From contig JAFDHD010000006.1 of the NCBI GenBank assembly GCA_019308995.1, positions 5,221-69,220 on the forward strand: DNA of 64,000 bases. The letters run 5' to 3'. The notes below the pieces were generated by a model that worked only from the letters and a program-made list of their open reading frames with translations, was not told the origin of the DNA and made no database searches. Both the position numbers and the translations under genes were made by a program. Source of the DNA: Deltaproteobacteria bacterium (lineage in GTDB: Bacteria; Desulfobacterota; Desulfarculia; Adiutricales; JAFDHD01). How positions within the stretch are numbered: position 1 is the first letter of the stretch; the number at the start of each line of letters is the position of its first letter. Below are positions 8,625-37,489 of this stretch, one piece after another.

Positions 8625-9866
8625 GTGGCGTTTGAGACCTTTATCGCCTGGAGATATTTTAAGGCCAAACGTAAGCAGGCCTTTATTTCTTTAATTACGA
8701 TCATTTCCCTGGCCGGAGTGGCTGTGGGCGTAACGGCCTTGATTGTGGTGTTGGCCGTGATGAGCGGAGTTCAAACGACCTGGAAAGATAAGATCCTGGG
8801 CGTTAACTCCCACATAGTTATCCTGAAGTACGGCCGGTCTCTGGAGAACTATAAAGAGGTACTGCCTGAGGTTGAGGAAGTCAAAGGGGTCCTTTCGGCT
8901 GAACCGTTTATTTATAGCCAGGTCATGTTGAGCGCTTTGGGCGGCGTCTCCGGGGCGGTCTTACGGGGAGTGGACCCGACTCTAACGGCAGAGGTTAGCC
9001 ACCTGAAGCACAGCATGATCTCCGGCCAAGTTTCTGACTTAGCCGCCCGCCCTGAAATTTCTTTCGGGCAGGCGGGCAATATTGTCCTCGGCCAGGAACT
9101 GGCCCGAACCTTGGGGGTTATTCTCGGAGATACCATTAACGTTATTTCCCCCATGGGGCAGATCTCTCCGCTGGGCGGCCGAATTCCACGAACCAGGAAT
9201 TTCAAGGTGGTGGGTCTGTTCAAGTCGGGCATGTATGAGTATGACTCGACACTGGCCTATGTGTCTCTTGACCAAGCTCAGGATTTTTTAAGCCTGGGAA
9301 CTGGGGTAACCGGGCTGGAAGTCATGGTTAAGGACATCTACCAGGCTAATAAGATTAAAAGAGATATTTTGGCGCGGTTGGGAGAGGGTTTTTGGGCCAG
9401 GGATTGGATGGAGATGAACCGGAACCTTTTCTGGGCTTTGAAATTGGAAAAGTTCGCCATGTTTATCATCCTGATGCTGATAGTCCTCGTGGCCGCCTTT
9501 AACATCATTTCGACTCTAATTATCGTGGTGATGGAAAAGGCCCGGGACATTGCTATCCTCAAATCTATGGGCGCCACAAACTTCAATATCATGAAGATAT
9601 TCGTTCTCCAGGGCCTGGCCATCGGTATCATTGGCACATTCATCGGGCTGATCGGCGGAGTGTTGCTTAGCAGTTTATTAGGCCAATATGAGTTCATCAA
9701 ACTGCCGCGTGATATTTATTATATAGATACTCTACCGGTGCATATGAAAGCCCTGGACGTGATCCTGGTTATTCTCATGGGCGTGGTGTTCTCTTTTTTA
9801 GCGACACTATACCCTGCGTGGCGAGCCTCCCGACTCAACCCGGTTGAGGCCCTCCGGTACGAGTAG
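8625..9866 (+). CDS. lipoprotein-releasing ABC transporter permease LolC/LolE
   Basis: 413 aa, MacB/FtsX topology with a large periplasmic loop and a C-terminal FtsX domain ending in PVEALRYE. Followed by lolD. Confidence 0.88.
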   Translation: MAFETFIAWRYFKAKRKQAFISLITIISLAGVAVGVTALIVVLAVMSGVQTTWKDKILGVNSHIVILKYGRSLENYKEVLPEVEEVKGVLSAEPFIYSQVMLSALGGVSGAVLRGVDPTLTAEVSHLKHSMISGQVSDLAARPEISFGQAGNIVLGQELARTLGVILGDTINVISPMGQISPLGGRIPRTRNFKVVGLFKSGMYEYDSTLAYVSLDQAQDFLSLGTGVTGLEVMVKDIYQANKIKRDILARLGEGFWARDWMEMNRNLFWALKLEKFAMFIILMLIVLVAAFNIISTLIIVVMEKARDIAILKSMGATNFNIMKIFVLQGLAIGIIGTFIGLIGGVLLSSLLGQYEFIKLPRDIYYIDTLPVHMKALDVILVILMGVVFSFLATLYPAWRASRLNPVEALRYE

Positions 9867-16320: not shown

Positions 16321-17112
16321 TTGGCCGGCCGGGGCCAGTTTCCGTTTTTGTTTGCTCGCGCTGCCCAGAGGAGAGGTGTCAAGGTTTTTGCCGCCGCTTT
16401 TGAGGGTGAGACGTTGCCAGAGCTTGAACAGGTGGTTGATGATATCCTCTGGGTTAAACTCGGGCAATTTGCACCGATAATGTCCTTCTTCAAACGCCAA
16501 GGGCTTAAGGAAGCGGTCATGGCCGGCGGTGTCACCAAGGTTAATATGTTTGCTCGCTTTCAGCCCGACTCTAAGGCGCAGGCCATCATGACCCGTCTTG
16601 AGACCTTAAACGACGATAACGTCCTGCGGGCACTGGCGGCCGAATTTGAAAATGAAGGCATCACCATCCTTGCCTCGACCCTCTACACCCCTGAACTTCA
16701 GGCTCCGAGCGGAGTTTTAACGCATCGGTCCCCGTCCTCGGACGAGGAAACGGATATTGAGTTTGGTTGGCAGGTGGCCAAGGCCATCGGAAATCTGGAC
16801 ATCGGCCAATGTGTTGTCGTGCGCCATCGGGTCGTACTGGCCGTGGAGGCTATCGAAGGTACGGACGAAGCTATCAGAAGGGGGGGCAGGCTGGCTCGAG
16901 AAGGAGCCGTCGTGGTCAAGGCCATAAAACCCAACCAGGATTTTCGTTTCGACGTTCCATCTGTCGGACCGGGCACCGTGGCTGTTATGAGAGAAGTTAA
17001 GGCCTCGGTTCTGGCTATTGAGGCAGGGAAGACTTTGATCTTTGACTCCGAGGAAATGATCGCGGCGGCAGACCAGGCTGGAATTGCCATTATAGCCAGA
17101 AAAAGTGAGTAG
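16321..17112 (+). CDS. lpxI: UDP-2,3-diacylglucosamine diphosphatase LpxI (DUF1009); true start probably upstream
   Basis: DUF1009-type sequence between lpxA and lpxB. The conserved N-terminal KIGLLAGRGQFP strand begins upstream of the first canonical start codon (see finding). Confidence 0.85.
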   Translation: MAGRGQFPFLFARAAQRRGVKVFAAAFEGETLPELEQVVDDILWVKLGQFAPIMSFFKRQGLKEAVMAGGVTKVNMFARFQPDSKAQAIMTRLETLNDDNVLRALAAEFENEGITILASTLYTPELQAPSGVLTHRSPSSDEETDIEFGWQVAKAIGNLDIGQCVVVRHRVVLAVEAIEGTDEAIRRGGRLAREGAVVVKAIKPNQDFRFDVPSVGPGTVAVMREVKASVLAIEAGKTLIFDSEEMIAAADQAGIAIIARKSE

Positions 17113-18076
17113 ACGCTTAAAGGTCGGAGTAGTCGGTGTGGGCTATCTAGGCCGGTACCACGCCGAAAAGTATAAGGCCATTGACGAGGTTGATCTGGTT
17201 GGGGTGGCCGATACCAAGCCCGAGCGGGCCGAGGCTGTGGCCGCAGAGCTTGGGGTTAAACCTTTCTTTGATTCTCCTGACCTAATGGGATTGGTGGACG
17301 CGGTCAGTATCGTTGTCCCGACCAAAGATCACTTTGAAATCACCCGCGCCTTCCTCGCCCAAGGCGTGCATGTCATAGTCGAAAAACCTATCACGCGAAC
17401 CCTTGATGAAGCCGATGGCCTGATCGAGCTGGCCAAGAACAATGAGCTAATCCTGCAGGTTGGCCACCTTGAACGGTTTAATCCAGCTATGCGGGCTGCC
17501 TCTTCATTGATCGGCGTGCCGCTTTTCATCGAGGCTAGCCGCATCAGTTCTTTCCCGGAGCGGGGGACGGATGTAGACGTGGTTCTGGACTTGATGATCC
17601 ACGATCTGGATATTGTATTGAACCTCGTGGGTGAACTACCAGAATCAATTCAGGCCGTGGGCGCGCCGATGGTGACAGACCATGTGGATATTGCCAACGC
17701 CAGACTCGAATTCGCATCAGGATGCGTGGCCAATCTGACGGCCAGCCGAATTTCAGACAAGAGCCTGCGTAAAATTCGTATCTTCCAGAAGGACGCCTAC
17801 CTCTCCATTGATTACGATCAGCGTCAGGTCGTGGTGACCCGGCGGGCCGCTGACAGGCCTCCCGGGAGACCGGAGACCACTACCGAAGAATTGGTTGTCC
17901 CTCCTGGCGATGCTTTAGAAAATGAGCTCAAGTCCTTTGTTGCATCTGTTAAGACCGGATCCGCGCCGTTTGTCAGCGGGGAGGACGGCCGTCAGGCTCT
18001 GGCCGTTGCCCTTCAGATTATGACGGATATAAAATCCCGGTCTAGGGATTGGCCGGAAATCATGGGAGAAAAGTAA
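17105..18076 (+). CDS. Gfo/Idh/MocA-family NAD(P) oxidoreductase embedded in the lpx operon
   Basis: Rossmann N-terminus VGVVGVGYLGRYHA and an EKP motif (VIVEKPIT). 8-nt overlap with lpxI. Confidence 0.85.
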   Translation: MSRRLKVGVVGVGYLGRYHAEKYKAIDEVDLVGVADTKPERAEAVAAELGVKPFFDSPDLMGLVDAVSIVVPTKDHFEITRAFLAQGVHVIVEKPITRTLDEADGLIELAKNNELILQVGHLERFNPAMRAASSLIGVPLFIEASRISSFPERGTDVDVVLDLMIHDLDIVLNLVGELPESIQAVGAPMVTDHVDIANARLEFASGCVANLTASRISDKSLRKIRIFQKDAYLSIDYDQRQVVVTRRAADRPPGRPETTTEELVVPPGDALENELKSFVASVKTGSAPFVSGEDGRQALAVALQIMTDIKSRSRDWPEIMGEK

Positions 18077-21067: not shown

Positions 21068-21712
21068 GTGGTGGCTCCAAATATGACCATATCCATTCGC
21101 AGGCGTAAAGGTAAGGTCATATTCACTTTGTGCCTGCTTTGGGTTATCGCCCTTGTGGCCGTTTATGACGTTCCGTTGTCGCAGGCTTTGAAAGCCAATG
21201 ATGGGCTGGGCGAGATCGTGGCTCGCTATGGCTACTGGATGGGCCACGGTAGTGTCATGATATCTCTGCTGGTTCTGATTTTGATACTCGGCTTTGTTTT
21301 TCCGCAAACTCGATTTAAGAGCGCCGGTGCCCGGGCCCTGCTGGCCTTTATCCTGTCAGGAGTTCTGGCTCAGATTATTAAACATCTTGTGGGACGCCCC
21401 CGCCCCCGTCTTCTGACAGAGGGGATCCATCATTTTGGCCCGACTCTGGCCTCGGGTCTGGATTCATTTCCCTCTGGACACGCCGCCTCCGCCGTTGCTG
21501 TAGCTACCGCTCTTTCTTTTTATTACCCCAGGGCTACGCCTCTGTTTATGTTCATCGCGTCCTTTATCGCTGCCTCCCGGATCTTTAGCGGCTCCCATTT
21601 CCCGATTGATATCCTCGGGGGAACAATCCTCGGCCTGAGTGTTGGCCTGATAATCAGTTCTTACGGTCGGCGTTCTAGAGCGATATCCTTCTATGGGGAG
21701 TCAGATCAGTGA
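21068..21712 (+). CDS. PAP2-family membrane phosphatase (LpxE/LpxF-like candidate)
   Basis: KHLVGRPRP, PSGH and SRIFSGSHFPID match the KX6RP / PSGH / SRX5HX3D triad. It abuts the msbA stop codon. The start is uncertain (GTG 21068 or ATG 21083). Confidence 0.8.
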   Translation: MVAPNMTISIRRRKGKVIFTLCLLWVIALVAVYDVPLSQALKANDGLGEIVARYGYWMGHGSVMISLLVLILILGFVFPQTRFKSAGARALLAFILSGVLAQIIKHLVGRPRPRLLTEGIHHFGPTLASGLDSFPSGHAASAVAVATALSFYYPRATPLFMFIASFIAASRIFSGSHFPIDILGGTILGLSVGLIISSYGRRSRAISFYGESDQ

Positions 21713-21782: not shown

Positions 21783-22928
21783 ATGAAGCGTATCATTCCT
21801 CATTACATCATTCGGGAAATTCTGCCAAACTTCTTTGTATCCCTTCTGGTATTCACCTTTATTCTTCTTCTGGCCAAGATTCTGGTATTAACTGAAATGG
21901 TGGTGGTCAAAGGGGTTAAACTGGAAACCATCCTCCGTTTCCTGTTATACAGCCTTCCTTTTTTACTTTCTTTGACCATTCCCATGTCCACGCTTCTGGC
22001 TGTACTTCTCGCTTTTCTTCGCCTCTCGGGCGATAATGAGATTACTGTCCTCAAATCAGCCGGGGTGAGCCTTTACAGGCTCCTTCCTTCAGTTATACTT
22101 TTTTGCCTCTGGACTTACCTGGTGACCAGCTACCTGGTTTTATATATGGTTCCTTCGTCCAATCGGGTTTTCCGGAATGAACTCCTGGCCCTGGCCAAGG
22201 TTAGCGCAGACATCGGTGTCAAGGAGGGGATATTCAATAATGCCTTTAAAGAGATGGTTCTTTATGTGGATCACATTGACGTGAGTAAAGGCTGGATGCG
22301 AGAAATCTTCATTCAGGACGCTCGGGAAGGTGAGGCGGCTAATGTTATTAACGCTTCCCATGGGCGCATTACCACTGACAAGAAGCAGCGCACTCTTGTT
22401 TTTGAGCTTTTCAATGGCGTGATTGACCACATCGAAGAGAGCATCGTTTTCGAGCGTTATGATCTCAAGCTGGATATGGAAAGCGCGCTCTCAGCGGAGA
22501 ACCTCAGACCACCGGATCAATTCGAGATGAACCAGGACGAGCTGTGGAGGGCGATTGACAACTTTGATCGGTCTGATGTTCGTTATTACCCGTATCTCTT
22601 AGAGGCCCATAAGAGGTACTCCCTGCCTTTTGCATGCCTGCTTTTGGGTTTGATTGCTGTGCCGCTGGGGGTTCAAGGCCGCGGGAAAGGACGAAACTGG
22701 GGCGTCAGTATGGGGCTGGGAGTTTTTCTTGTTTATTATATTCTTTTCACCGCTGGATTGAGCTTTGGTGAAACAGGGGCTTACCCACCGATCCTGGGAA
22801 TGTGGGTGCCCAATATCGTCCTTGGCGTTGCGGCCTTATATATGCTGCGTCAGGCTAATCACGAGGCCCCCCTGCATATCGTTTCCCTGCTCGATTTTTT
22901 TGAATCACGATTGAGGCCTGGTGAGTGA
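21783..22928 (+). CDS. lptF: LPS export permease LptF (YjgP/YjgQ family)
   Basis: 381 aa, YjgP/YjgQ topology with a periplasmic beta-jellyroll insert. Paired with lptG. Confidence 0.85.
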   Translation: MKRIIPHYIIREILPNFFVSLLVFTFILLLAKILVLTEMVVVKGVKLETILRFLLYSLPFLLSLTIPMSTLLAVLLAFLRLSGDNEITVLKSAGVSLYRLLPSVILFCLWTYLVTSYLVLYMVPSSNRVFRNELLALAKVSADIGVKEGIFNNAFKEMVLYVDHIDVSKGWMREIFIQDAREGEAANVINASHGRITTDKKQRTLVFELFNGVIDHIEESIVFERYDLKLDMESALSAENLRPPDQFEMNQDELWRAIDNFDRSDVRYYPYLLEAHKRYSLPFACLLLGLIAVPLGVQGRGKGRNWGVSMGLGVFLVYYILFTAGLSFGETGAYPPILGMWVPNIVLGVAALYMLRQANHEAPLHIVSLLDFFESRLRPGE

Positions 22929-22939
22929 GGCTCTGAAGC

Positions 22940-24019
22940 ATGAAGGTTGTTAATCGCTATTTACTCGAGGAATTCATTCGCACCCTTGGAATTATTCTGC
23001 TTTCTTTTGTCCTGATTTATCTCATCGTTGACTTTCTAGAGAAGATTGATAACTTCCTTGAAGCCGATGTGCCTCTCATAAGAGTGGTCTACTATTACCT
23101 GATGTCCATCCCGGCTATCCTCTTCAATGTGGCGCCGGTGGCTGTCCTGGTTTCGGTCATGATCTTCCTGGGTCTACTGGCCAGGCATAGCGAGATCGTG
23201 GCGCTGAAGGCCGGAGGGATCAGTCTGTATCGCGTTTCGATTCCTATCTTATGGATGGCATTATTTATGAGCCTGCTGCTGTTCGGGCTTTCCGAGACGG
23301 TGATTCCTTACACATCGGCGCAGACCAATGCTATCTGGAATGTGGAGGTGGAAAAGCGCCAGGATACTTCCTCCGGTCGCTATGAGGATGTCTGGTATAA
23401 AGGTGAAGGGATTATTTATAACTTCCAGGTTTACGACCAGCCGGCGCGAGTCCTGGAGGGTGTCAGTCTTTACCGCTTTGATGAAAAATTCGTAATCCAT
23501 GAGCGGATCGAGGCTAAAGAAGCTCGATGGATTGACGGCCGGTGGCTTTTTTTTCAGGGTCTGGTGAAAAGGTATCTTAATGACGGGGAGTTGCGACTGG
23601 AGTATTTTGATCAGGCCGTTTTTGAACTCCCGGAGATGCCCGAAGATTTTTCACGCGTCACGCGCTCTCCGGATGAGATGAACTTCGAGAGTTTATACCG
23701 TTATGCACGCCGAGTCGAGGCAGAAGGACATGATCCTGTTCGCTATTATGTTGATCTCAACCTCAAGATCGCCTTCCCCCTCATCTGTTTTGTCATGGCG
23801 CTCATTGGCCTGCCCATCGCCTTCTGGAGGGAAAAAGGCGGCGGTATCGCTTTGGGGATTGGTGCGGGAATTGGTCTGTCGTTCGTCTATCTTGTCCTGC
23901 TTGGCCTGTTCCGTTCACTTGGTTACACAGGCCTTCTTCCGCATGTAGCCGCCGCCTGGCTGCCCGTTTTAATTTTTATCCTGTTTGGATTTTTCTTGTT
24001 TACCCTGGTGCGCCAGTGA
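22940..24019 (+). CDS. lptG: LPS export permease LptG (YjgP/YjgQ family)
   Basis: 359 aa paralog of the upstream gene, with the same topology. Confidence 0.85.
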   Translation: MKVVNRYLLEEFIRTLGIILLSFVLIYLIVDFLEKIDNFLEADVPLIRVVYYYLMSIPAILFNVAPVAVLVSVMIFLGLLARHSEIVALKAGGISLYRVSIPILWMALFMSLLLFGLSETVIPYTSAQTNAIWNVEVEKRQDTSSGRYEDVWYKGEGIIYNFQVYDQPARVLEGVSLYRFDEKFVIHERIEAKEARWIDGRWLFFQGLVKRYLNDGELRLEYFDQAVFELPEMPEDFSRVTRSPDEMNFESLYRYARRVEAEGHDPVRYYVDLNLKIAFPLICFVMALIGLPIAFWREKGGGIALGIGAGIGLSFVYLVLLGLFRSLGYTGLLPHVAAAWLPVLIFILFGFFLFTLVRQ

Positions 24020-24037
24020 AAAAGGGTGGCAAATATC

Positions 24038-24512
24038 GTGAAAAAACCTGTCTTAAAGAGAAACTAAGGTTATCCTGGATAGAGACTTAGCCCAACTTTA
24101 TGGCGTGGAAACAAAAGCATTGAAGCAAGCAGTGAGAAGGAATATAAAGCGTTTTCCTGTTGATTTCATGTTTGAGTTGACAAAAGATTAATTTAAAAAC
24201 TTGAGGTCACAAATTGTGACCTCAAGTTGGGGAGGAGCAAGATATTCCCCTATGGCTTTTACCGAACAAGGTGTAGCCATGCTCTCAAGTGTCCTGAACA
24301 GTGAGAGGGCGATCCAGGTTAACATTCAGATTATGAGAGTGTTTATTTTCCTGCGGCGGAGGCTGTCTACAAATGAAGATTTGAGAAGACAAATTAAAAG
24401 GATGGAGAAGAAATACGACCAACAGTTTAAGGTTGTTTTTGAAGCCATTAAGCAATTGTTGGATAAAGAGAGGAAGCCTAAAAGAAAAATTGGTTTAACC
24501 AGCGGAAAGTGA
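24038..24512 (+). pseudogene. decayed ORF6N-domain (KilA-N-like) gene
   Basis: Reads [92 protein letters not shown]. There is an in-frame TAA at 24189-24191. The N-terminal segment from GTG 24038 is in another frame and stops after 9 codons. Confidence 0.75.
24198..24228. repeat. perfect 31-nt palindrome
   Basis: AACTTGAGGTCACAA-A-TTGTGACCTCAAGTT, 15-bp arms around one central base, lying inside the ORF6N remnant 7 nt after its premature stop. Confidence 0.9.
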
Positions 24513-24581: not shown

Positions 24582-25460
24582 GTGTTTGGCTTCCGGCTCA
24601 TAGGCCGGCTGACGGCACGGGTGATGGACACGCTCTGGAGGTCTTTCCCGCCAATTGTCAGAATTGAAACCACGAATCGCTGCAATGCGGCCTGCACCTT
24701 TTGCCCGCACCTGTCCATGCAGCGGGAGACAGGCGTCATGGACCAGGCCCTTTACGAAAAGCTTGTGATGGAATGCACCCAGGGCGGCTGCCGGACACTG
24801 CATCTGCACAACTTTGGCGAGCCGCTTCTTGATCCTGATTTGGCAGAGCGTATTGCTTTTGCCAAAGACGCCGGTATGCGCCGCGTGAAAATTTTTACCA
24901 ATGGCAGCCTGCTTTCCGGTGAGCGTGCCGAACGTTTACTTGGCTCAGGCCTGGATGAGATCAAAATCAGCATTGATGGCAGGGATGCCGAGGAATTCGC
25001 CCGGTTGCGCAAAGGACTGTCGCTGGACATGATCCTCGATAACACACGCCGTTTTCGAGCCATGCGGGATAAGACTGCAGCGAAACGGCGTCCCACTATC
25101 ATCGCAGCCTGCACCCAGACCTCTGACCGCGGAGCAACCGACCGTTTCCTTTCCAGCGTGGTGGACCGCACTGATTATGGTGAACTTCATAACTGGGGCG
25201 GCATCATGAATCCCTTACAGGGGCGCAGGATCCGCAAGCCATGCTCCCGAGTTTGGCAGACATTTACTGTCCTTTGGAATGGTGACGTAGCCCTCTGCTG
25301 CCTTGATTACGATGGCAGTGAAATCTTAGGAAATGTCAGGGAAAAACCCATAAGGCAGGTCTGGCAAGAGGAACGCTACCAGGCGATACGCAGACTGCAC
25401 CGCTTATCCGAACAGGACGCCATCCCGCTTTGCCAGGATTGTTCTAAGAGTTTTTATTAG
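24582..25460 (+). CDS. radical SAM protein with a SPASM/twitch-like C-terminal Cys domain
   Basis: ETTNRCNAACTFCPH (CX3CX2C) and C-terminal cysteines (CSRVW, LCCLDYDG, PLCQDCSK). The start is GTG 24582 or ATG 24624. Confidence 0.85.
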   Translation: MFGFRLIGRLTARVMDTLWRSFPPIVRIETTNRCNAACTFCPHLSMQRETGVMDQALYEKLVMECTQGGCRTLHLHNFGEPLLDPDLAERIAFAKDAGMRRVKIFTNGSLLSGERAERLLGSGLDEIKISIDGRDAEEFARLRKGLSLDMILDNTRRFRAMRDKTAAKRRPTIIAACTQTSDRGATDRFLSSVVDRTDYGELHNWGGIMNPLQGRRIRKPCSRVWQTFTVLWNGDVALCCLDYDGSEILGNVREKPIRQVWQEERYQAIRRLHRLSEQDAIPLCQDCSKSFY

Positions 25461-25554
25461 CTTTTAATCCCTCACCCTGTTTCCCGACAAATTGACTCCT
25501 ATAAAAAGCTGGGGCTAATAGCCTTTAAAAGCAAGGGAATGGCTTAGGTTCACC

Positions 25555-25583
25555 TTGACTTTACGAGGGGTCTTTGATAGATT
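25555..25583 (+). promoter_or_regulatory. candidate sigma-70 promoter for the second PAP2 gene
   Basis: TTGACT (25555-25560), 17-nt spacer, TAGATT (25578-25583). Confidence 0.3.
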
Positions 25584-25633
25584 TTAGTAAAAATATGAGG
25601 TGGTTTGCTTAAATCTACTATTAGATTCTTAGT

Positions 25634-26239
25634 GTGATGCTCGATTCTTTGCTTAAGATTGACCGCATCCTTTTTTATGCCATCAACCAAGGCACCAGGA
25701 ATGCGGTTTTCGACTGGCTGATGCCTGCTGTTTCCTGGCAGTACCTGTGGGTTCCGCTGTCCTTGATTGTCCTTATTTTCTTAGTACGCTCCACATGGCG
25801 AACCAGATGGATTCTGATCATTTTAATCCTGGTTTTTGTTACGGGCGATGCCTTTAACAGCCGGGTTTTGAAACCATTATTTACTCGCCCCCGGCCTTAC
25901 AGCAGTTTAACGCAAGTTCATTTACATAAGAATCACTGGGAAGTGACACCGGAGCTCAAACCAAAAAATCCAAACCCGACCAGCTCTTTTCCTTCGACGC
26001 ACGCTGTAAACGCCGCCAGTTCCGCAACGGTGCTGATCTGTTTCTACCCGCGTTTCTGGCCGCTTATGGCGTTTCTGGCCGCGCTGATCTGCTACTCCCG
26101 TGTTTACATCGGCGTCCATTATCCATTTGATGTTTTGGCAGGGGTCCTGGTTGGACTGTTCCTGGCCGGATCGGTCTTGGTCGTTCAAGCTTTAATCAGG
26201 CGCCGGGTCCAGGTTCGTTTTTTTAATGGAGGCAAGTAG
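25634..26239 (+). CDS. PAP2-family membrane phosphatase, second copy
   Basis: KPLFTRPRP, PSTH and SRVYIGVHYPFD triad; polytopic membrane protein. Confidence 0.8.
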   Translation: MMLDSLLKIDRILFYAINQGTRNAVFDWLMPAVSWQYLWVPLSLIVLIFLVRSTWRTRWILIILILVFVTGDAFNSRVLKPLFTRPRPYSSLTQVHLHKNHWEVTPELKPKNPNPTSSFPSTHAVNAASSATVLICFYPRFWPLMAFLAALICYSRVYIGVHYPFDVLAGVLVGLFLAGSVLVVQALIRRRVQVRFFNGGK

Positions 26240-26375: not shown

Positions 26376-27674
26376 ATGATGTTTCCTCTTTACACATTGG
26401 CTTACTGTGGGGCAACCATGGCCTTGTCGCCTTATTACCTGGTCAAGGGTCTGGCTTCCGGAAAATACCTCTGGAGCCTTTCCGCCAGGCTGGGTGTGGC
26501 AGACATCAGTCTTGAGCCCAAGTCAACCTTTAGAATCTGGGTTCACACCTTGAGCCTTGGGGAGACTCTTTCTGTCTTGGCGCTCATCACCCGTCTCAAG
26601 AATGAAGGTTATGAAGTTTGTCTGTCCACTACGACCCGGAGCGGCCGCCAGATCGCTCGAGCAAGATTTTCGGAAAAAGCCAAAATCATACAGTTCCCTT
26701 ATGACTGGCCGCCGGCCGTAAGACGTGTTCAGGATAAGGTTCAGCCTGACCTGTTCGTGCTGGTGGAGACAGACATTTGGCCTAATTTTCTGGCTCGTCT
26801 TGAGCGCGAAAGAATACCGATCGTGCTCATAAATGCCAGGGTTTCCCCACGTTCTTATGCGCGTTATCGTCTGGTCAAGAGGTGGTGGCGACGGGTGCTG
26901 AATTTATTTACTTTCATCGGTGTTCAGACTGTCCTTGATAAACAGCGGATGCTCGATCTGGGAGCTGGATCGGATCGAGTCGTGGTGACCGGGAATCTCA
27001 AATTCGACCAACCTCAGCCTGAAGCCGGTTCAGGAGTTCTTGAGTCCTTACTGGCTGAGAGCGGCCTGCCTCGAGGCGTTTGGCTGGTAGGAGGCAGCAC
27101 TCATCCTGGTGAGGATGAGGCTTTACTTGAAATTTTTACTGAACTCGCCCCCAGTTTTCCTGAGCTAAAGCTTTTGTTAGCCCCGCGAAATAAGTCCCGG
27201 TTTGAACCGGTCTGGCGGCTGATTCAGCAACGGAATTTGAAGGCGGCGCGCCGGAGCGGTCCGAAGCCGTGTGCCGATATAAAAATATTTCTGCTTGACA
27301 CCCAGGGCGAACTGGAGAGGTTCTTTGAACTTGCTGATGTGGTTTTTATTGGTAAAAGCCTGCCCGGTTCAGGAGAAGGCGGGGGCCATAATCTGCTCGA
27401 ACCGGCAGCTCATTTCAAACCGGTCCTTTTTGGTCCCAGGATGCAGAATTTCAAAGAGATTGCTCAGTCAATACTATCAGCCGGGGGAGGTATTCAGGTG
27501 GCTGACCAGGAGGAGTTGAAAATGGTCCTGAGCACTCTTTTGGCCTGTCCTGAAAAACGCAAAGAGCTGGGACAGCAGGCTCGTGGTGTGGTCGAGGCTC
27601 ACCAGGGGGCGGTTGATCGAAACATGGACCTCATAACCCGGGCTCTTGCTTTGCGAGGTACAGTAGGCTTGTGA
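26376..27674 (+). CDS. waaA: 3-deoxy-D-manno-octulosonic acid (Kdo) transferase
   Basis: GT30 layout with an IWVHTLSLGE N-terminal motif, 432 aa. Followed by lpxK with a GTGA overlap. Confidence 0.9.
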   Translation: MMFPLYTLAYCGATMALSPYYLVKGLASGKYLWSLSARLGVADISLEPKSTFRIWVHTLSLGETLSVLALITRLKNEGYEVCLSTTTRSGRQIARARFSEKAKIIQFPYDWPPAVRRVQDKVQPDLFVLVETDIWPNFLARLERERIPIVLINARVSPRSYARYRLVKRWWRRVLNLFTFIGVQTVLDKQRMLDLGAGSDRVVVTGNLKFDQPQPEAGSGVLESLLAESGLPRGVWLVGGSTHPGEDEALLEIFTELAPSFPELKLLLAPRNKSRFEPVWRLIQQRNLKAARRSGPKPCADIKIFLLDTQGELERFFELADVVFIGKSLPGSGEGGGHNLLEPAAHFKPVLFGPRMQNFKEIAQSILSAGGGIQVADQEELKMVLSTLLACPEKRKELGQQARGVVEAHQGAVDRNMDLITRALALRGTVGL

Positions 27675-28747
27675 AACTTGCGGCCAGCCTGTATTCAGAG
27701 CGTCCGGGACTCATGCGGCGTCTGTTGACTTATGTTTACGGCGCGGGGGTCGGTTTTCGCCTTGAGCTTTACCGGTCCGGCCGGCTTAAGTCCGATCGCC
27801 TTCCGGCGCGGGTCATCAGCGTGGGTAATCTTGTGGTCGGCGGAACAGGCAAGACCCCGACCGTGATTTTCATTGCCAGACGGCTGCATTCAATGGGCGT
27901 CCGAACCGCCGTGCTGAGCCGAGGTTACCATGGCCAGGCCCGGCGTTCGATTAACGTGGTTTCTGATGGAGCGGAAGTGTTTCTCAGCCCGAGGCAGGCC
28001 GGGGACGAGGCTTATCTGATAGCTGAGTCACTGCCCGGCGTGGTTGTGCTGACTGGTAAAGATCGTTTACTCCTCGGCCAGCACGCTATTGATCGCTTTC
28101 AGACCCAGGCCCTTATTCTGGATGATGCCTTTCAGCACTTAAAACTGAAAAGGGATGTCAATCTGCTGCTCCTGGATGCGACTCAGCCCTGGGGCAACGG
28201 CTGGATATTACCGGCTGGTCCTTTACGTGAACCCAGGTCCCAGGCCAGCCGGACCACGGCCTTTCTTATCACCCGGGCCGAGCAGGAGCCTCAGCAGCTC
28301 AGAGAGGAGTTGGGAAAGGACTTTCCCGGCCGACCAGTATTTTCAGCGCGGTACCGACCAGTTTCACTGACCCGGCTTCTTGGCGGCGGGCAGGAGGATC
28401 CGGGCCGTATGGCTGGACAGAGGGTTTTGGCGTTTTGCGGTTTGGCCAGGCCTCACGATTTTCTTAATACTTTAACGGGGCTCGGCGCTGAAGTGGCTGG
28501 ATTCGTTGACTGGCCCGATCATTTTCAGGCCCGGCGCAGTGACCTTCTTTCCCTGGCGGCCAAGGCCAGGGAATTGGGTGTCACCAAGGCTGTGACCACG
28601 ACCAAAGATGCAGTGAAATTATCAACCAGGGAACTAAGCAAGTGGGGGCTGCCATTGGAGATATGGGTCTTGGGGGTAGAGCTTGAGGTCCTGGACCGAG
28701 AAGATGAATTTATGGCTATGTTGTATCCAAGTCAGGAGGCCTCCTGA
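27671..28747 (+). CDS. lpxK: tetraacyldisaccharide 4'-kinase
   Basis: P-loop VGNLVVGGTGKTP and LSRGY motif; size typical of LpxK. Confidence 0.92.
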   Translation: MKLAASLYSERPGLMRRLLTYVYGAGVGFRLELYRSGRLKSDRLPARVISVGNLVVGGTGKTPTVIFIARRLHSMGVRTAVLSRGYHGQARRSINVVSDGAEVFLSPRQAGDEAYLIAESLPGVVVLTGKDRLLLGQHAIDRFQTQALILDDAFQHLKLKRDVNLLLLDATQPWGNGWILPAGPLREPRSQASRTTAFLITRAEQEPQQLREELGKDFPGRPVFSARYRPVSLTRLLGGGQEDPGRMAGQRVLAFCGLARPHDFLNTLTGLGAEVAGFVDWPDHFQARRSDLLSLAAKARELGVTKAVTTTKDAVKLSTRELSKWGLPLEIWVLGVELEVLDREDEFMAMLYPSQEAS

Positions 28748-28752
28748 CTTTC

Positions 28753-29841
28753 ATGGATATTGACCCGCAAAACGTTCGGCGCATCCTGGTCCGTTCAACC
28801 AATTGGGTTGGAGACGCGCTGCTGAGTACGCCAGCTTTGGCCTCTCTGAGGGATAACTTCCCTGAATCTCATCTTTCCGTCCTGGCTAGAAAGTGGGTCA
28901 CAGCGATCTATAAAGATCATCCGGCGGTGGATGAGATCATGGTCTACGATGTTGAAGGGAGACACAAGGGCTGGTCCGGGTTCATTCGGCTGGCAAGTGA
29001 GATTCGCAAGCAGCAGTTCGATCTGGTGGTGCTCTTTCAGTACGCCTTTGGCGCAGCCTTGCTTACCTGGCTGGCGCGGATACCCGAGCGCATAGGGTAC
29101 AATACCGATGGCCGCGGACTTTTACTCAATCGGGCCGTCTCGCGCCGGTCTGGGGATAAGAAGATTCACGAGGTTGAGTCTTATCAGGGGCTTATTCACC
29201 GGTCCGGCTTGAGGATTATACAGTCGAGGCCGGTTTTTCATTTAAATCCTGTGGCTGAAAAACTGGCTTCCGCCAGACTGATTGAATTGGGTTTGAACGA
29301 TTCCTTTCTCTTGGGTCTTGCGCCCGGGGCCGCATATGGTCAGGCCAAACAGTGGCCTCAAGAAAAGTATGCCAAAGCGGCTCAGATTATTCTTGAGCAG
29401 AAAGGCGGGGCGGCCTTGCTTTTTGGCAGTCAGGGTGAGGCTGCGGTTACCAGGAAGTTGAAAGAGTTACTACCGGTACCGGTATATGATCTGGCCGGGC
29501 AGACCGACCTGGCCGGGGTTGCAGCCTTGATAAAGCGCTGTCACCTGTTTTTGACTAATGATTCGGGGTTGATGCATGTTGGAGCGGCAGTGGGCACGCC
29601 TCTGGTGGCCGTATTTGGCTCGACCACTCCGGTGACCACGGGCCCGGTTACAGGCCAGGCCCGCGTGATTTACCATCCGGTTGATTGCTCCCCATGCTTT
29701 AAGCGTGTTTGTGACCAGCCGAGCCATCTCTGCATGGACCTGGTCACAGTCGAAGAGGTTGCCGCAGCCGGACTTGAACTGCTGGAGAAAGGAGGCGAGC
29801 TTGGCAACGAAACTCAGACGGGCCGTTTTTCTGGATCGTGA
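28753..29841 (+). CDS. waaF: GT9 ADP-heptose:LPS heptosyltransferase (WaaF-like)
   Basis: GT9 N-terminal motif STNWVGDALLSTPAL and C-terminal NDSGLMHVGAAVGTPLVAVFG. The heptosyltransferase II assignment rests on resemblance only. Confidence 0.75.
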   Translation: MDIDPQNVRRILVRSTNWVGDALLSTPALASLRDNFPESHLSVLARKWVTAIYKDHPAVDEIMVYDVEGRHKGWSGFIRLASEIRKQQFDLVVLFQYAFGAALLTWLARIPERIGYNTDGRGLLLNRAVSRRSGDKKIHEVESYQGLIHRSGLRIIQSRPVFHLNPVAEKLASARLIELGLNDSFLLGLAPGAAYGQAKQWPQEKYAKAAQIILEQKGGAALLFGSQGEAAVTRKLKELLPVPVYDLAGQTDLAGVAALIKRCHLFLTNDSGLMHVGAAVGTPLVAVFGSTTPVTTGPVTGQARVIYHPVDCSPCFKRVCDQPSHLCMDLVTVEEVAAAGLELLEKGGELGNETQTGRFSGS

Positions 29842-30391
29842 TGGGACGATCAATGAGCAGATGGGCTATATTAACCACCTCGATCGTTTTGTACTTCTTC
29901 CCGGCGTTGCTCCAGCCATAGCCCGGCTTAACCGGGCCGGTCTGGTGGTGGTCGTTACGAGCAATCAGTCCGGAGTAGCCCGCGGCTACTTTTCCTGGGA
30001 CCTGGTTGAGGCGGTCACCAAGAGGATGAAGGATCTTTTAGCCCTGGATGGGGCGAGGCTGGACGGTATTTACTACTGCCTTCACCATCCGCAGGCTGAA
30101 GTGCCTGAATATCGGAAAAACTGCGAATGCCGCAAGCCCCGTCCTGGCTTGATTCAGAAGGCGGCAGCCGAATTGAAGCTGGACCCGGCTCGTTCCTTTA
30201 CTATCGGAGATAGAGTCTCTGATCTCATACCCGGCCGGGCCGTGGGGGCTCGAAATATACTCGTGCTGAGCGGATATGGGCGGGGTGAGCTGGAGTATGT
30301 CCTGCCAAAAGCTGATGTTAAGCCTGATTATGTGGCTGATGATCTTGCCCGGGCCGTGGACTGGATTCTTAATGAGATTGAAGCCGAGTGA
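29801..30391 (+). CDS. gmhB: D,D-heptose 1,7-bisphosphate phosphatase
   Basis: HAD motifs FLDRDGTIN, TSNQSG, CRKPRPG, GDRVSD and the Zn site C-x-H...C-x-C. Start set at TTG 29801, 5 nt after GGAGG. The track ORF start at 29681 lies inside the upstream gene. Confidence 0.88.
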   Translation: MATKLRRAVFLDRDGTINEQMGYINHLDRFVLLPGVAPAIARLNRAGLVVVVTSNQSGVARGYFSWDLVEAVTKRMKDLLALDGARLDGIYYCLHHPQAEVPEYRKNCECRKPRPGLIQKAAAELKLDPARSFTIGDRVSDLIPGRAVGARNILVLSGYGRGELEYVLPKADVKPDYVADDLARAVDWILNEIEAE

Positions 30392-30422: not shown

Positions 30423-31454
30423 TTGAACATTCTGATAATCAAACTTAGCGCCATCGGCGACGTGGTTCTGTGTCAGCCCTTCCTGGACGCACTGCGGCAG
30501 ACCCATCCCCAGGCTCGCCTGACCTGGCTTGTCGAGGAGGCAGCGGCTGATATTGTCACGGATCACCCGCAGCTTGATCGCGTTCTGATTTTACGCCGCA
30601 AATCATGGCTAAGAGAAATCAGAAAGGGCCACATTAGTTCGATCATCAGGGAGGTGCGCTTTTTCCTGAAAGACCTGCGGTCAGAGAGATATGATCTGGT
30701 TATTGACTTGCAGGGGCTGTTCAAGAGCGGTGTTTTCGCTTTCCTCAGCCGCGGGCATCAAAGGATGGGTTTTGACCGGTCTCGGGAACTAAGCCACCTT
30801 TTTTACAACCAGCGCATGAAACCGTATGATCGTGACCAGCATGCCTTACTCCGCAACTTAGACGTGGCCGCGCTCCTGGGGGCCGAAGTTGACAAGAATC
30901 CTGAATTCAATCTGCCTTGCCATGAGACCGCGGCCAAGCTGGCGAAGCGGCTCTTAACCGGAGCTGACAAACCCAGGGTCGTAATCAATCCGGCCGCCAG
31001 GTGGGTCACCAAGCTCTGGCCCGTGCCGCGCTGGAGGGAACTGATCCAGCGGCTGGTCAGGGACCTGAAGGTCCAGGTAATACTTACCGGCGGGCCGGAT
31101 GACACAGTTTTAAATCATCAAATTATTCGAGGGAATCACGGGACTCTGGATGTAACCGGTCAGACCAGCTTGAAGGTTTTAACGGAATTGTTCCGATCTG
31201 CTGCCGTGGTCGTCTGTCCTGACACCGGGCCGATGCACCTGGCCGTTGGGGCGGGGGCCCCGGTGGTGGCCCTTTTTGGACCCACCGCCCCATGGCGCAG
31301 CGGCCCTTTTGGCCCGGAGCATCTTGTTTTAAGGCGGGACCTGGACTGCAGTCCGTGTTTTCGTAAAAAGTGCCCGGATCCGAAATGTATGACCGGTTTG
31401 AGCGTGGATGAGGTTTTTGAGGCGGTTCGGACGAAGATTGAGCAAGGCCGGTAA
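30423..31454 (+). CDS. waaC: GT9 ADP-heptose:LPS heptosyltransferase (WaaC-like)
   Basis: MNILIIKLSAIGDVVLCQPFLDAL resembles the WaaC N-terminus; C-terminal PDTGPMHLAVGAGAPVVALFG. Confidence 0.75.
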   Translation: MNILIIKLSAIGDVVLCQPFLDALRQTHPQARLTWLVEEAAADIVTDHPQLDRVLILRRKSWLREIRKGHISSIIREVRFFLKDLRSERYDLVIDLQGLFKSGVFAFLSRGHQRMGFDRSRELSHLFYNQRMKPYDRDQHALLRNLDVAALLGAEVDKNPEFNLPCHETAAKLAKRLLTGADKPRVVINPAARWVTKLWPVPRWRELIQRLVRDLKVQVILTGGPDDTVLNHQIIRGNHGTLDVTGQTSLKVLTELFRSAAVVVCPDTGPMHLAVGAGAPVVALFGPTAPWRSGPFGPEHLVLRRDLDCSPCFRKKCPDPKCMTGLSVDEVFEAVRTKIEQGR

Positions 31455-36493: not shown

Positions 36494-37489
36494 ATGAATT
36501 CAATGTTTGATACTTCTAAGCTTGTTGAGGCCATTGATCGCTTTTCTGAGGTCAAGATCCTGATCATCGGAGATGTCATGATGGATGAGTTCATCTGGGG
36601 CACGGTCGAACGGATATCCCCGGAGGCCCCAGTCCCGGTGGTGAATGTGACGCGTGAAACTAGGGTTTTGGGCGGAGCGGGTAATGTGATCAATAATGTC
36701 GTTTCCGTGGGAGGGCAGGCCATGCTTGCAGGCGTGGTCGGGCCGGACAGGATGGGCCGCAGAATCATCAGTATGCTTCAAGATCTAGGCAGCAGCCCTG
36801 ATGGTATCTTTATTGATGAAAACCGGCCGACTACCATCAAGACCCGTATCGTGGCTCAGGCACAGCAGGTGGTTCGTTTTGACCGCGAAAAAAAGGATTC
36901 TTTAAAATCGAAAATGACCGAAAAAATCCTTAATTTCCTTAATGAGCTGGCTGATTCTCTGGACGCGGTCATCATCTCTGACTATGGAAAAGGTGTGATC
37001 TCACTCGAATTGATGGACGGAGTTCGGCAATCCCTTGAAGGGCAGAATGTTATCATCACCGTTGACCCCCAGATCAACCATTTTTTGTTTTACCGAAATG
37101 TTACAGCCATAACCCCTAACCACTATGAAGCCGGAGCGGGCGTGGGGGTTAAAATTGATTCGGAAGAAAGTCTCGAACAGGCAGGCAACATGCTCATGGA
37201 TGGGCTTAACCTGGCCTCAGTGCTTATCACCCGGGGCGAGCAGGGAATGGCTCTTTTTGAAAGAGACCTCTCCCCGGTGCATATCCCGGTCGTAGCCAGG
37301 GACGTCTTTGACGTTTCCGGAGCTGGTGACACGGTTATTGCCGCATTAACCCTGGGTTTGGCTGCCGGGTTGTCCTTTCAGGAAGCGGCCGCCTTGTCCA
37401 ATTTCGCCGCAGGCATAGTGGTTGGTAAGATTGGGACGGCTGCAGTTACAGCCGAGGAACTTAAGGCGGCGGTTATAAATATCGAGTAA
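36494..37489 (+). CDS. D-glycero-beta-D-manno-heptose-7-phosphate kinase (HldE/RfaE domain I only)
   Basis: PfkB-family sugar kinase: ILIIGDVMMDEFIWGTVERISPEAPVPVV and C-terminal DVSGAGDTVIA. No fused adenylyltransferase domain. Confidence 0.88.
   Translation: MNSMFDTSKLVEAIDRFSEVKILIIGDVMMDEFIWGTVERISPEAPVPVVNVTRETRVLGGAGNVINNVVSVGGQAMLAGVVGPDRMGRRIISMLQDLGSSPDGIFIDENRPTTIKTRIVAQAQQVVRFDREKKDSLKSKMTEKILNFLNELADSLDAVIISDYGKGVISLELMDGVRQSLEGQNVIITVDPQINHFLFYRNVTAITPNHYEAGAGVGVKIDSEESLEQAGNMLMDGLNLASVLITRGEQGMALFERDLSPVHIPVVARDVFDVSGAGDTVIAALTLGLAAGLSFQEAAALSNFAAGIVVGKIGTAAVTAEELKAAVINIE

Follow-up and report, generated by a model that had tools for sequence, protein, structure and literature searches.

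We propose that the radical S-adenosylmethionine (SAM) protein encoded at positions 24582-25460, on the forward strand, of a 64,000-nucleotide stretch of DNA from Deltaproteobacteria bacterium (assembly GCA_019308995.1, contig JAFDHD010000006.1; the whole stretch is hereafter called the window) is a BtrN-like cytoplasmic enzyme with a twitch domain that belongs to the biosynthesis of the inner core of lipopolysaccharide (LPS), where it would act on a core sugar, most likely a heptose. We give this reading a probability of about 0.5, and within it we infer the substrate, the site of attack and the outcome, which may be that of a dehydrogenase or that of an epimerase. The proposal is carried by the relationship of the 292-amino-acid protein to BtrN, the 2-deoxy-scyllo-inosamine (DOIA) dehydrogenase of the butirosin pathway (PDB 4M7T/4M7S), and by the link of its family to LPS genes, which is strong. 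We know of no radical SAM reaction in canonical lipid A and core biosynthesis, and in the searchable literature nothing was found that describes this family or a radical SAM step in the LPS core; the candidates that the literature offered were rejected, as they concerned hopanoid HpnH/HpnJ or unrelated loci.

It is noted that a preliminary description of the window, made from the letters alone, had placed two open reading frames (ORFs) between lptG and waaA, one for a 292-residue radical SAM protein with the motif CNAACTFC and additional C-terminal cysteines and the other for a second PAP2 phosphatase, and had read the two as a pair that could specify an undescribed modification of lipid A or of the core. 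Both ORFs are confirmed, with Pfam matches above the cutoffs, identical proteins are present in the NCBI records of metagenome-assembled genomes (MAGs) labelled Deltaproteobacteria (P0001 and P0121), and the flanks are indeed lptF-lptG on the one side (lptF at 21783-22928 and lptG at 22940-24019, both on the forward strand and above the cutoffs of TIGR04407 and TIGR04408, respectively) and waaA-lpxK on the other. From the interpretation given there, the BtrN-like relationship and the link to LPS are retained, while the partnership with the PAP2 phosphatase and the promoter assigned to the PAP2 gene are abandoned, as discussed below.

Sequence and fold of the radical SAM protein

The ORF begins with GTG, with GGAGG about 10 nt upstream. 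Its product matches the Pfam families Radical_SAM (PF04055; E 1.6e-17, 64.6 bits against a cutoff of 29.5) and SPASM (PF13186; E 1.8e-16, 60.6 bits against a cutoff of 21.5). The conservation was read from two alignments, one (A1) of 20 relatives that are 48-70 % identical and the other of 14 sequences that include paralogues. In both of them the three cysteines of the motif CNAACTFC (residues 34-41, positions 24681-24704), that is, C34-X3-C38-X2-C41, are invariant, which is the CX3CX2C motif of the SAM-binding [4Fe-4S] cluster. Five C-terminal cysteines, C221, C239, C240, C284 and C287, are also invariant, both in the 20 relatives and in the paralogues, and they form the pattern C221-X17-C239-C240 ... 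C284-X2-C287 at 25242-25442. Four of them (C221, C239, C284 and C287) align with cysteines of the C-terminal domain of BtrN, and the arrangement C221-X12-G-X4-C239 together with C284-X2-C287 fits the pattern of a twitch (truncated SPASM) domain, in which a CX9-15GX4C hairpin and a CX2C supply four ligands. The protein lacks the CX2CX5CX3C block that marks full SPASM domains, its domain having five cysteines only. Because there are four ligands and a spare cysteine, with that block missing, "twitch-like" is the correct label, and the twitch/SPASM assignment made earlier agrees with this one-cluster cysteine pattern and with the PF13186 match. Across the family and the paralogues, no cysteines are invariant other than the cluster ligands and the CC pair. 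A further residue, C177, was considered as a catalytic cysteine and rejected, as it is lineage-restricted and not conserved in the members at loci L133 and L134.

The AlphaFold2 model of the protein, which was built on the alignment, has a mean predicted confidence (pLDDT) of 86 and a predicted template modelling score (pTM) of 0.85, and its strands and helices alternate; as modelled, the protein has the partial (beta/alpha)6 triose-phosphate isomerase (TIM) barrel of radical SAM enzymes. When the model was compared with the PDB by Foldseek, 115 matches were obtained at E <= 0.001, and all 50 among the matches listed are radical SAM enzymes. The top match is BtrN (E 4.8e-14, template modelling score 0.75 over the length of BtrN, about 22 % identity), followed by SuiB, BlsE, DesII, viperins, the anaerobic sulfatase-maturating enzyme (anSME) and SpeY; the close structures other than BtrN belong mostly to enzymes whose substrates are sugars or nucleotides (BlsE, DesII, viperin, SpeY), with SuiB, the second, modifying peptides. 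A profile search of all PDB sequences likewise gave BtrN first, by a wide margin, with E 1e-25, the match covering the core and the Cys-rich domain, then MoaA (4e-11) and BlsE (2.6e-10). No NCBIfam model reaches its cutoff on the protein, the best being W_rSAM_matur with 102.7 against 380, and the models of SPASM peptide or cofactor maturases among the 25 NCBIfam matches listed are all far below their cutoffs. The profile search that had been suggested for placing the protein in a subfamily leads to this result: the protein falls into none of the curated families, and of the characterised proteins BtrN is the closest to it.

BtrN and the protein are alike in being small (250 versus 292 amino acids), in the partial TIM-barrel core and in the single C-terminal twitch domain with the four aligned cysteines. 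By contrast, the family in the window has an extra invariant cysteine beside the second ligand (the CC motif), begins with an amphipathic helix and keeps basic residues at many invariant positions, and its context is the LPS core rather than aminoglycoside biosynthesis, so that an acidic or phosphorylated substrate would be expected instead of an aminocyclitol. Neither the window nor 160 related loci yielded any aminoglycoside genes. Because of the low identity, and because LPS genes are found where aminoglycoside genes would stand, the protein is not an orthologue of BtrN with DOIA dehydrogenase activity.

The basic residues just mentioned comprise 13 Arg, Lys or His positions that are invariant across the 20 relatives, a conservation that suggests an anionic substrate. 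The N-terminal helix lies before the conserved FP motif, at residues ~2-20 (24585-24641); it spans residues 2-18 in the model, with a hydrophobic moment of 0.75 that was exceeded in 0 of 500 shuffles and with a net charge of +3. Most relatives show the same trend to an amphipathic and mostly cationic helix, while the helix is absent from the rSAM2 paralogues described below, and in the model it could serve as an interfacial membrane anchor.

An exhaustive HMM search of 1.84 billion cluster representatives shows the extent of the family. The tight family collapses to about two clusters at 50 % identity (~420 bits), and the enclosing superfamily consists of proteins of 300-350 amino acids with the same architecture, in 4,129 clusters at E <= 1e-30. 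A tandem paralogue, here called rSAM2, has about 280 amino acids, is 34-36 % identical and keeps the five C-terminal cysteines without the N-terminal helix. It lies directly 3' of the gene of the family proper in L079 (917-1747), L133 (6895-7767), L134 (6870-7709), L123 and L125, and the window has a single copy of the radical SAM gene.

Genomic neighbourhoods and the proposed reaction

The neighbourhoods were taken from 80 loci of species-representative genomes, 80 loci of metagenomes and about a dozen loci obtained by exact-protein look-ups, with the ORFs of each locus scored against the LPS proteins of the window itself. The counts below refer to the 81 non-redundant loci of the first set, and adjacency means a distance within 300 bp. 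A gene for a family 9 glycosyltransferase (GT9) is adjacent to the radical SAM gene in 41 of the 81 loci and lptF or lptG in 12, giving 53 of 81 together. The GT9 gene is downstream on the same strand in 29 of the 41 cases, often with a gap of 3-10 bp, upstream on the same strand in 10 and divergent in 2. The GT9 partner is of the heptosyltransferase I (WaaC) type: that of L083 and the window protein at 30423-31454 pass the cutoff of TIGR02193, which is also the best match of the planctomycete partners, yet with scores below the cutoff. BamB-like and GT4 genes are further recurrent neighbours; in a Desulfobulbaceae MAG the radical SAM gene is near an ELM1-type GT-B gene and a GT4 gene, and in a Syntrophobacteraceae MAG it is near MlaEFD.

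The arrangement differs from lineage to lineage. The clade of the window has the order lpxB-msbA-PAP2-lptF-lptG-radical SAM (L001, L088, L099 and L100). The gene stands before lptF in Phycisphaerae, Aegiribacteria and some MAGs labelled Pirellulales, before or after waaC in Planctomycetia, and divergent from the GT9 gene in Verrucomicrobiota. In L083 the order is hldE-gmhA-gmhB-radical SAM-waaC-waaF-GT4; in L125 and L133 it is waaA-lpxK, a short-chain dehydrogenase/reductase (SDR) gene, genes for an HddA-like kinase, an HddC-like nucleotidyltransferase and a GmhA-like protein, radical SAM-rSAM2-?-GT4; in L134 it is waaA-lpxK-lpxL-waaF-gmhB-waaC-radical SAM-rSAM2. The last of these is collinear with the waaA...waaC string of the window, with the radical SAM gene at the opposite end. 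Thus, the gene shifts its position within the LPS core cluster but remains inside it, and a conserved neighbourhood with waaC, waaF, gmhA, gmhB, hldE, waaA or lptFG is found across lineages. The preliminary description had counted a lack of conservation of the gene pair with LPS genes in other genomes among the results that would speak against its idea; for the radical SAM gene, the opposite is found, since its linkage to LPS genes extends across many genomes, and it is the pairing of this gene with the PAP2 gene that is not conserved.

In L001, where the radical SAM relative is 68 % identical, the gene that follows on the opposite strand (9010-9840) is for an outer-membrane phospholipase A (PLA1/PldA family), a further gene of outer-membrane lipid homeostasis.

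The proposed reaction can be described as follows. The enzyme would be cytoplasmic and possibly membrane-peripheral. Its CX3CX2C cluster would cleave SAM reductively to give the 5'-deoxyadenosyl radical, which would take a hydrogen atom off a carbinol carbon, one that bears a hydroxyl, in a core sugar. After the abstraction, two outcomes can be envisaged. The first, on the pattern of BtrN, is that the alpha-hydroxyalkyl radical would be oxidised to the ketone via the one auxiliary [4Fe-4S] cluster. The other is that a cysteine thiol would quench the radical from the opposite side, which would yield the epimer, with the spare invariant C240 as a candidate hydrogen donor. The likely substrate would be a heptose, either ADP- or GDP-heptose or the heptose already on Kdo-lipid A (Kdo, 3-deoxy-D-manno-oct-2-ulosonic acid), and the modified heptose would pass to the core via the WaaC-type GT9 transferase. 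We favour a heptose because three lineages embed the radical SAM gene among heptose-nucleotide genes and because waaC is its commonest neighbour.

With respect to the epimer outcome, HygY, NeoN and AbmJ are radical SAM enzymes that invert a carbinol centre of a sugar, and they are compared here by description rather than by sequence; their place is in the antibiotic biosynthesis of actinomycetes, not in LPS. AbmJ is a radical SAM epimerase that acts at C3 of a heptose (PMC9978623), and for the twitch enzyme HygY the title of a work cited in PMC10991966 states that mutation of a single cysteine unmasks a dehydrogenase activity. By analogy, these enzymes offer a plausible model of the mechanism for an enzyme that is directed at a heptose and has an invariant cysteine to spare.

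A more concrete form of the idea is that of a radical analogue of the ADP-heptose 6-epimerase, which arises from L083, where the radical SAM gene, lying between gmhB and waaC-waaF, occupies the place of the enterobacterial hldD. The operon order in E. coli is hldD-waaF-waaC. By this analogy of position, it is possible that the radical SAM enzyme is a functional analogue of HldD (GmhD, ADP-L-glycero-D-manno-heptose 6-epimerase), which is itself an NADP-dependent SDR and not homologous. The data do not demand that HldD is replaced, because the SDR that adjoins the radical SAM genes in L133 has weak similarity to HldD. A query with an approximate E. coli HldD sequence gave no match in 95 loci (pieces of ~20 kb) and the window, a weak result on which we do not rely. 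On the whole, a radical SAM step that acts on an NDP-heptose (a nucleoside-diphosphate-activated heptose) or on the first core sugars, either as a substitute for HldD or by making a new heptose or Kdo variant, is put forward tentatively, at somewhat short of an even chance, and as part of the same reading and with the same reserve we suppose that Planctomycetota, Desulfobacterota, Verrucomicrobiota and Nitrospirota, among other phyla, would make use of such a step.

Several points weigh against the proposal of a heptose-directed LPS enzyme. Planctomycetota MAGs supply most of the loci sampled, so that common ancestry lies behind many of the 41 GT9 adjacencies and the cases are less independent than the raw counts convey; a stronger argument than the counts is that the arrangements and the phyla are varied. 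In 28 of the 81 loci neither GT9 nor lptFG is within 300 bp, and no recognisable LPS gene is nearby in L010/L090, L067, L073 and L076. In L125 and L133, several of the genes were assigned to the heptose pathway on scores that miss the curated cutoffs. Two syntenic relatives of the window, L093 and L094, have no radical SAM gene at this position, and the gene is thus not an obligatory part of the cluster. Finally, the fusion to WaaA described below and the adjacency to lptFG point equally to Kdo-lipid A, and an action on Kdo or Kdo2-lipid A is the main alternative.

Fusions and alternative functions

The superfamily also occurs in fused form. In P0358 a complete WaaA is joined to a complete radical SAM/twitch domain that is 33 % identical to the window protein and keeps the FP, HNW, CC and CX2C signatures. 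Its contig (L096) resembles a locus for a nonulosonic-acid glycan, with NeuB, CTP_transf_3 and Epimerase_2, and since it is a singleton fusion cluster in such a locus, P0358 is suggestive only. Other fusions join the radical SAM domain to a Zn-ribbon Methyltransf_23 domain (P0311), to GNAT (P0368) and to GT4 (P0505). The closest WaaA relatives of P0358 are WaaA-methyltransferase fusions (P0391, P0393, P0396 and P0397, the metagenomic set of fused WaaA); in L097 such a fusion has a 4-bp overlap with the first of two radical SAM/twitch genes, which are followed by a further methyltransferase gene. In P0490, WaaA is fused to a kinase domain of the Kdo/WaaP family, by family assignment only. As read from their predicted domains, the fusions place the radical SAM superfamily among glycan-tailoring enzymes. 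Both L096 and L097 also carry B12-binding radical SAM genes. A methyltransferase was considered as the partner of the radical SAM protein and rejected, as the Zn-ribbon Methyltransf_23 type adjoins the family proper only in L019.

According to the alternative on the Kdo side, the enzyme acts on Kdo, Kdo2-lipid A or lipid A between the WaaA and WaaC steps, at the inner membrane face, for example by oxidation or epimerisation of a Kdo hydroxyl. The fusion of a paralogue with all the signature residues to a full-length WaaA, the overlap in L097 and the recurrence of WaaA fusions to LPS-modifying domains, of which P0490 is another case, are what this alternative would lead one to expect. It is also consistent with Kdo2-lipid A being the acceptor of WaaC, the product of the commonest neighbour, with the adjacency to lptFG without GT9 in the 12 loci and in the clade of the window, with the amphipathic cationic helix, which suits a membrane-bound substrate, and with the fact that in the window only the second PAP2 gene lies between the radical SAM gene and waaA. 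By contrast, the WaaA fusion is known from one contig, with a domain that is a distant paralogue, and the family proper stands directly among heptose-nucleotide genes in three lineages. We therefore consider a Kdo-side function unlikely, though it deserves to be kept in view. KdoO and LpxO are Fe/2-oxoglutarate dioxygenases that modify Kdo or the acyl chains of lipid A on the cytoplasmic side. The radical SAM enzyme would likewise be accessory to Kdo2-lipid A, with an unrelated fold and without their O2-dependent chemistry; we know of no radical SAM counterpart of KdoO or LpxO that has been described, and the literature searches found none either.

A function unrelated to LPS, such as a housekeeping step on a cofactor or metabolite whose gene has a loose synteny with envelope genes, would explain the 28 loci without adjacent GT9 or lptFG and those neighbourhoods that have tRNA synthetase, MutY-like, TsaD or phospholipid genes. 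For a random gene, however, the share with a GT9 neighbour would be well under 1 % (an estimate from there being few GT9 genes per genome), as compared with 41 of 81 here. Moreover, the gene changes its place, being found after lptG, before waaA, after waaC or before lptF, yet does not leave the LPS cluster, the fusions join it to glycan enzymes, and the repeated re-creation of the linkage is left unexplained if the function lies elsewhere. An LPS-independent role is thus improbable, though some clades may have one.

Less probable still is that the protein is a maturase of proteins or peptides, either anSME-like for sulfatases or for peptides that are made on the ribosome and modified after translation (RiPPs), with the LPS neighbourhood as an inherited synteny without functional meaning. 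The database records of some family members bear the name "sulfatase maturation enzyme AslB", a gene of the sulfatase family precedes the radical SAM gene by 6 bp in L074 and another stands beside the WaaA fusion in L096, and SuiB precedes the sugar-acting enzymes in the Foldseek ranking after BtrN. Planctomycetota are rich in sulfatases, and anSME performs a dehydrogenation of the same kind as BtrN, that is, a two-electron oxidation. The SPASM maturases anSME (AtsB/anSMEcpe), SuiB, AlbA and PqqE also share with the window protein the radical SAM core and, at the C-terminus, a domain rich in cysteine with a match to Pfam SPASM. They have, however, two auxiliary clusters with 7-8 cysteines, 350-450 amino acids and peptide-binding regions, whereas the window protein has five cysteines in this domain, 292 amino acids, only ~25 residues ahead of the CX3CX2C motif and hence no peptide-recognition domain, no RiPP recognition element (RRE) domain, no precursor peptide, and no linkage to a sulfatase. 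A sulfatase-family ORF is within +/-10 kb in only 4 of the 81 loci and adjacent in 1. Among the small ORFs around the radical SAM gene in 82 loci none is conserved, the recurrent ones being antisense or out-of-frame coding shadows. The linkage to LPS has also been rebuilt in several arrangements and phyla, which argues against inherited synteny.

The second PAP2 phosphatase and the surrounding cluster

The second PAP2 phosphatase (201 amino acids, 25634-26239, forward strand; PF01569, E 4.4e-23, 81.9 bits against a cutoff of 27.2) has intact motifs KX6RP, PSxH (of the PSGH type) and SRX5HX3D, which read in translation as K-PLFTRP-RP, FPSTH and SRVYIGVHYPFD, respectively. It is 33 % identical to the first PAP2 phosphatase of the window (21068-21712, forward strand; PF01569, E 3.2e-25), which has the arrangement msbA-PAP2-lptF and is in the equivalent position in L001, L093 and L099, so that its description as a second copy was correct. 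It reaches no NCBIfam cutoff: the SepP-type undecaprenyl pyrophosphate phosphatase model gives 69.6 against 250, PRK11837 42 against 229 and LpxE 18 against 177. As the scores miss the curated cutoffs, they give no assignment as a lipid A phosphatase (LpxE/LpxF) or as an undecaprenyl pyrophosphate phosphatase (BcrC/YbjG/SepP). Its position upstream of waaA-lpxK suggests that the substrate is the phosphate of lipid A or of a carrier lipid.

The close relatives of the second PAP2 phosphatase are few and 48-60 % identical, and the three that could be placed are all directly upstream of the waaA-lpxK unit, each without the radical SAM gene: L093 has lptF-lptG-PAP2-waaA-lpxK, L094 has PAP2-waaA-lpxK-waaF-gmhB-waaC-deacetylase, with proteins 51-65 % identical to those of the window, and L095 (3183-8977) has lptG-PAP2-arnC/arnA/arnD-like-waaA-lpxK. 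The last arrangement suggests that in that lineage the PAP2 phosphatase works alongside an aminoarabinose-type chemistry of lipid A or of a carrier lipid. Of arnA, both the formyltransferase and the dehydrogenase halves are represented there. Conversely, the closest radical SAM relatives (68-71 %; L001, L088, L099 and L100) follow lptG without this PAP2 gene and have unrelated genes after them. Because the orthologues of the one gene occur without the other in both directions, the window juxtaposes two modules, (msbA-first PAP2-lptF-lptG-radical SAM) and (second PAP2-waaA-lpxK-...). The second PAP2 phosphatase is then an independent module, a lipid-phosphate phosphatase whose gene accompanies waaA-lpxK and in this genome simply happens to lie next to the radical SAM gene.

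That the two genes are a co-evolved pair specifying one modification of lipid A or the core, by dephosphorylation together with a radical step, is the least credible of the readings and hardly to be expected, for although they adjoin on the same strand 173 bp apart, and L052 and L072 have PAP2 genes on the other strand within 1 kb of the radical SAM gene, three loci have the orthologue of the one and at least four have a close relative of the other without its supposed partner, the PAP2 gene tracks waaA-lpxK, and the expected topologies differ. The active sites of PAP2 enzymes are normally periplasmic, while radical SAM enzymes need cytoplasmic SAM and reductant, and a tightly coupled two-step modification is thus unlikely. 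The candidate promoter that had been assigned to the PAP2 gene is a single match (TTGACT-17-TAGATT, 25555-25583, forward strand) to 9 of 12 consensus positions, which is not significant. Two promoter-like matches were found upstream of the gene, as compared with 2.9 +/- 1.6 in shuffles, and with the count at chance level this promoter carries no weight.

Both genes lie in a cluster for outer-membrane biogenesis on one strand. Its first part is lolC/E-lolD, bamA, skp, lpxD, lpxA, lpxI, a GFO/IDH/MocA oxidoreductase gene, lpxB, msbA and the first PAP2 gene; the middle part is lptF, lptG, an ORF6N remnant, the radical SAM gene, the second PAP2 gene, waaA (26376-27674; PF04413) and lpxK (27671-28747; PF02606, with TIGR00682 above cutoff). 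There follow genes for a waaF-type GT9 (28753-29841; TIGR02195, 222.8 against 134.6), a gmhB-like HAD protein (within 29681-30391; HAD domains), a waaC-type GT9 (30423-31454; TIGR02193, 193.5 against 185.3), a polysaccharide deacetylase, a GT2 and a GT4, and then for a CmcI-type methyltransferase, a GT1, the D-glycero-beta-D-manno-heptose-7-phosphate kinase (rfaE domain I; 36494-37489; TIGR02198, 382.9 against 345) and ugd. All the genes with coordinates given here are on the forward strand.

The gap between lptG and the radical SAM gene is 562 bp in the window and 43-50 bp in L001 and L088. It holds a decayed, AT-rich ORF6N-domain pseudogene (24030-24512, forward strand; PF10543 match) with an in-frame TAA at 24189-24191 and a lost N-terminus, whose G+C content is 39.6 % against ~51 % in the surroundings. 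The pseudogene is probably a remnant of the insertion of a mobile element, and it carries a perfect palindrome with a 14-bp stem (24198-24228).

Some other features of the cluster are noted here. LpxI (16321-17112; LpxI_N and LpxI_C domains) is used by the cluster, with no lpxH seen in it. The GFO/IDH/MocA oxidoreductase between lpxI and lpxB (17105-18076) is kept in L001 (1164-2144), and its best NCBIfam match is UDP-GlcNAc (UDP-N-acetylglucosamine) 3-dehydrogenase, with 207 bits, below the cutoff of 450; from this match it may catalyse a GnnA-like step towards lipid A of the GlcN3N type. In the window the genes of the heptose pathway are split up, with gmhB and the rfaE domain I kinase present and with gmhA, the adenylyltransferase and hldD not recognised among the window ORFs scanned. 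As read from translation only, the motif CSPCF-X3-C-X5/6-C, possibly a metal-binding knuckle, stands at the C-terminal end of both GT9 proteins.

A twitch radical SAM enzyme acting on a carbohydrate is a known kind of enzyme, and its use in LPS core biosynthesis is new as far as the searchable literature goes. Apart from this, the PAP2-waaA-lpxK unit stands out as a separate conserved module. If the proposal of a heptose-directed enzyme is true, it would bring a new chemical step into an envelope pathway that is among the best studied, would lead one to expect a core sugar structure not yet known in Planctomycetota and in many anaerobes, and would provide a counterpart in primary metabolism to the antibiotic-pathway twitch enzymes BtrN, HygY and AbmJ. 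Thousands of records that are now named "radical SAM/SPASM domain protein" or "AslB-like" could then be re-labelled.

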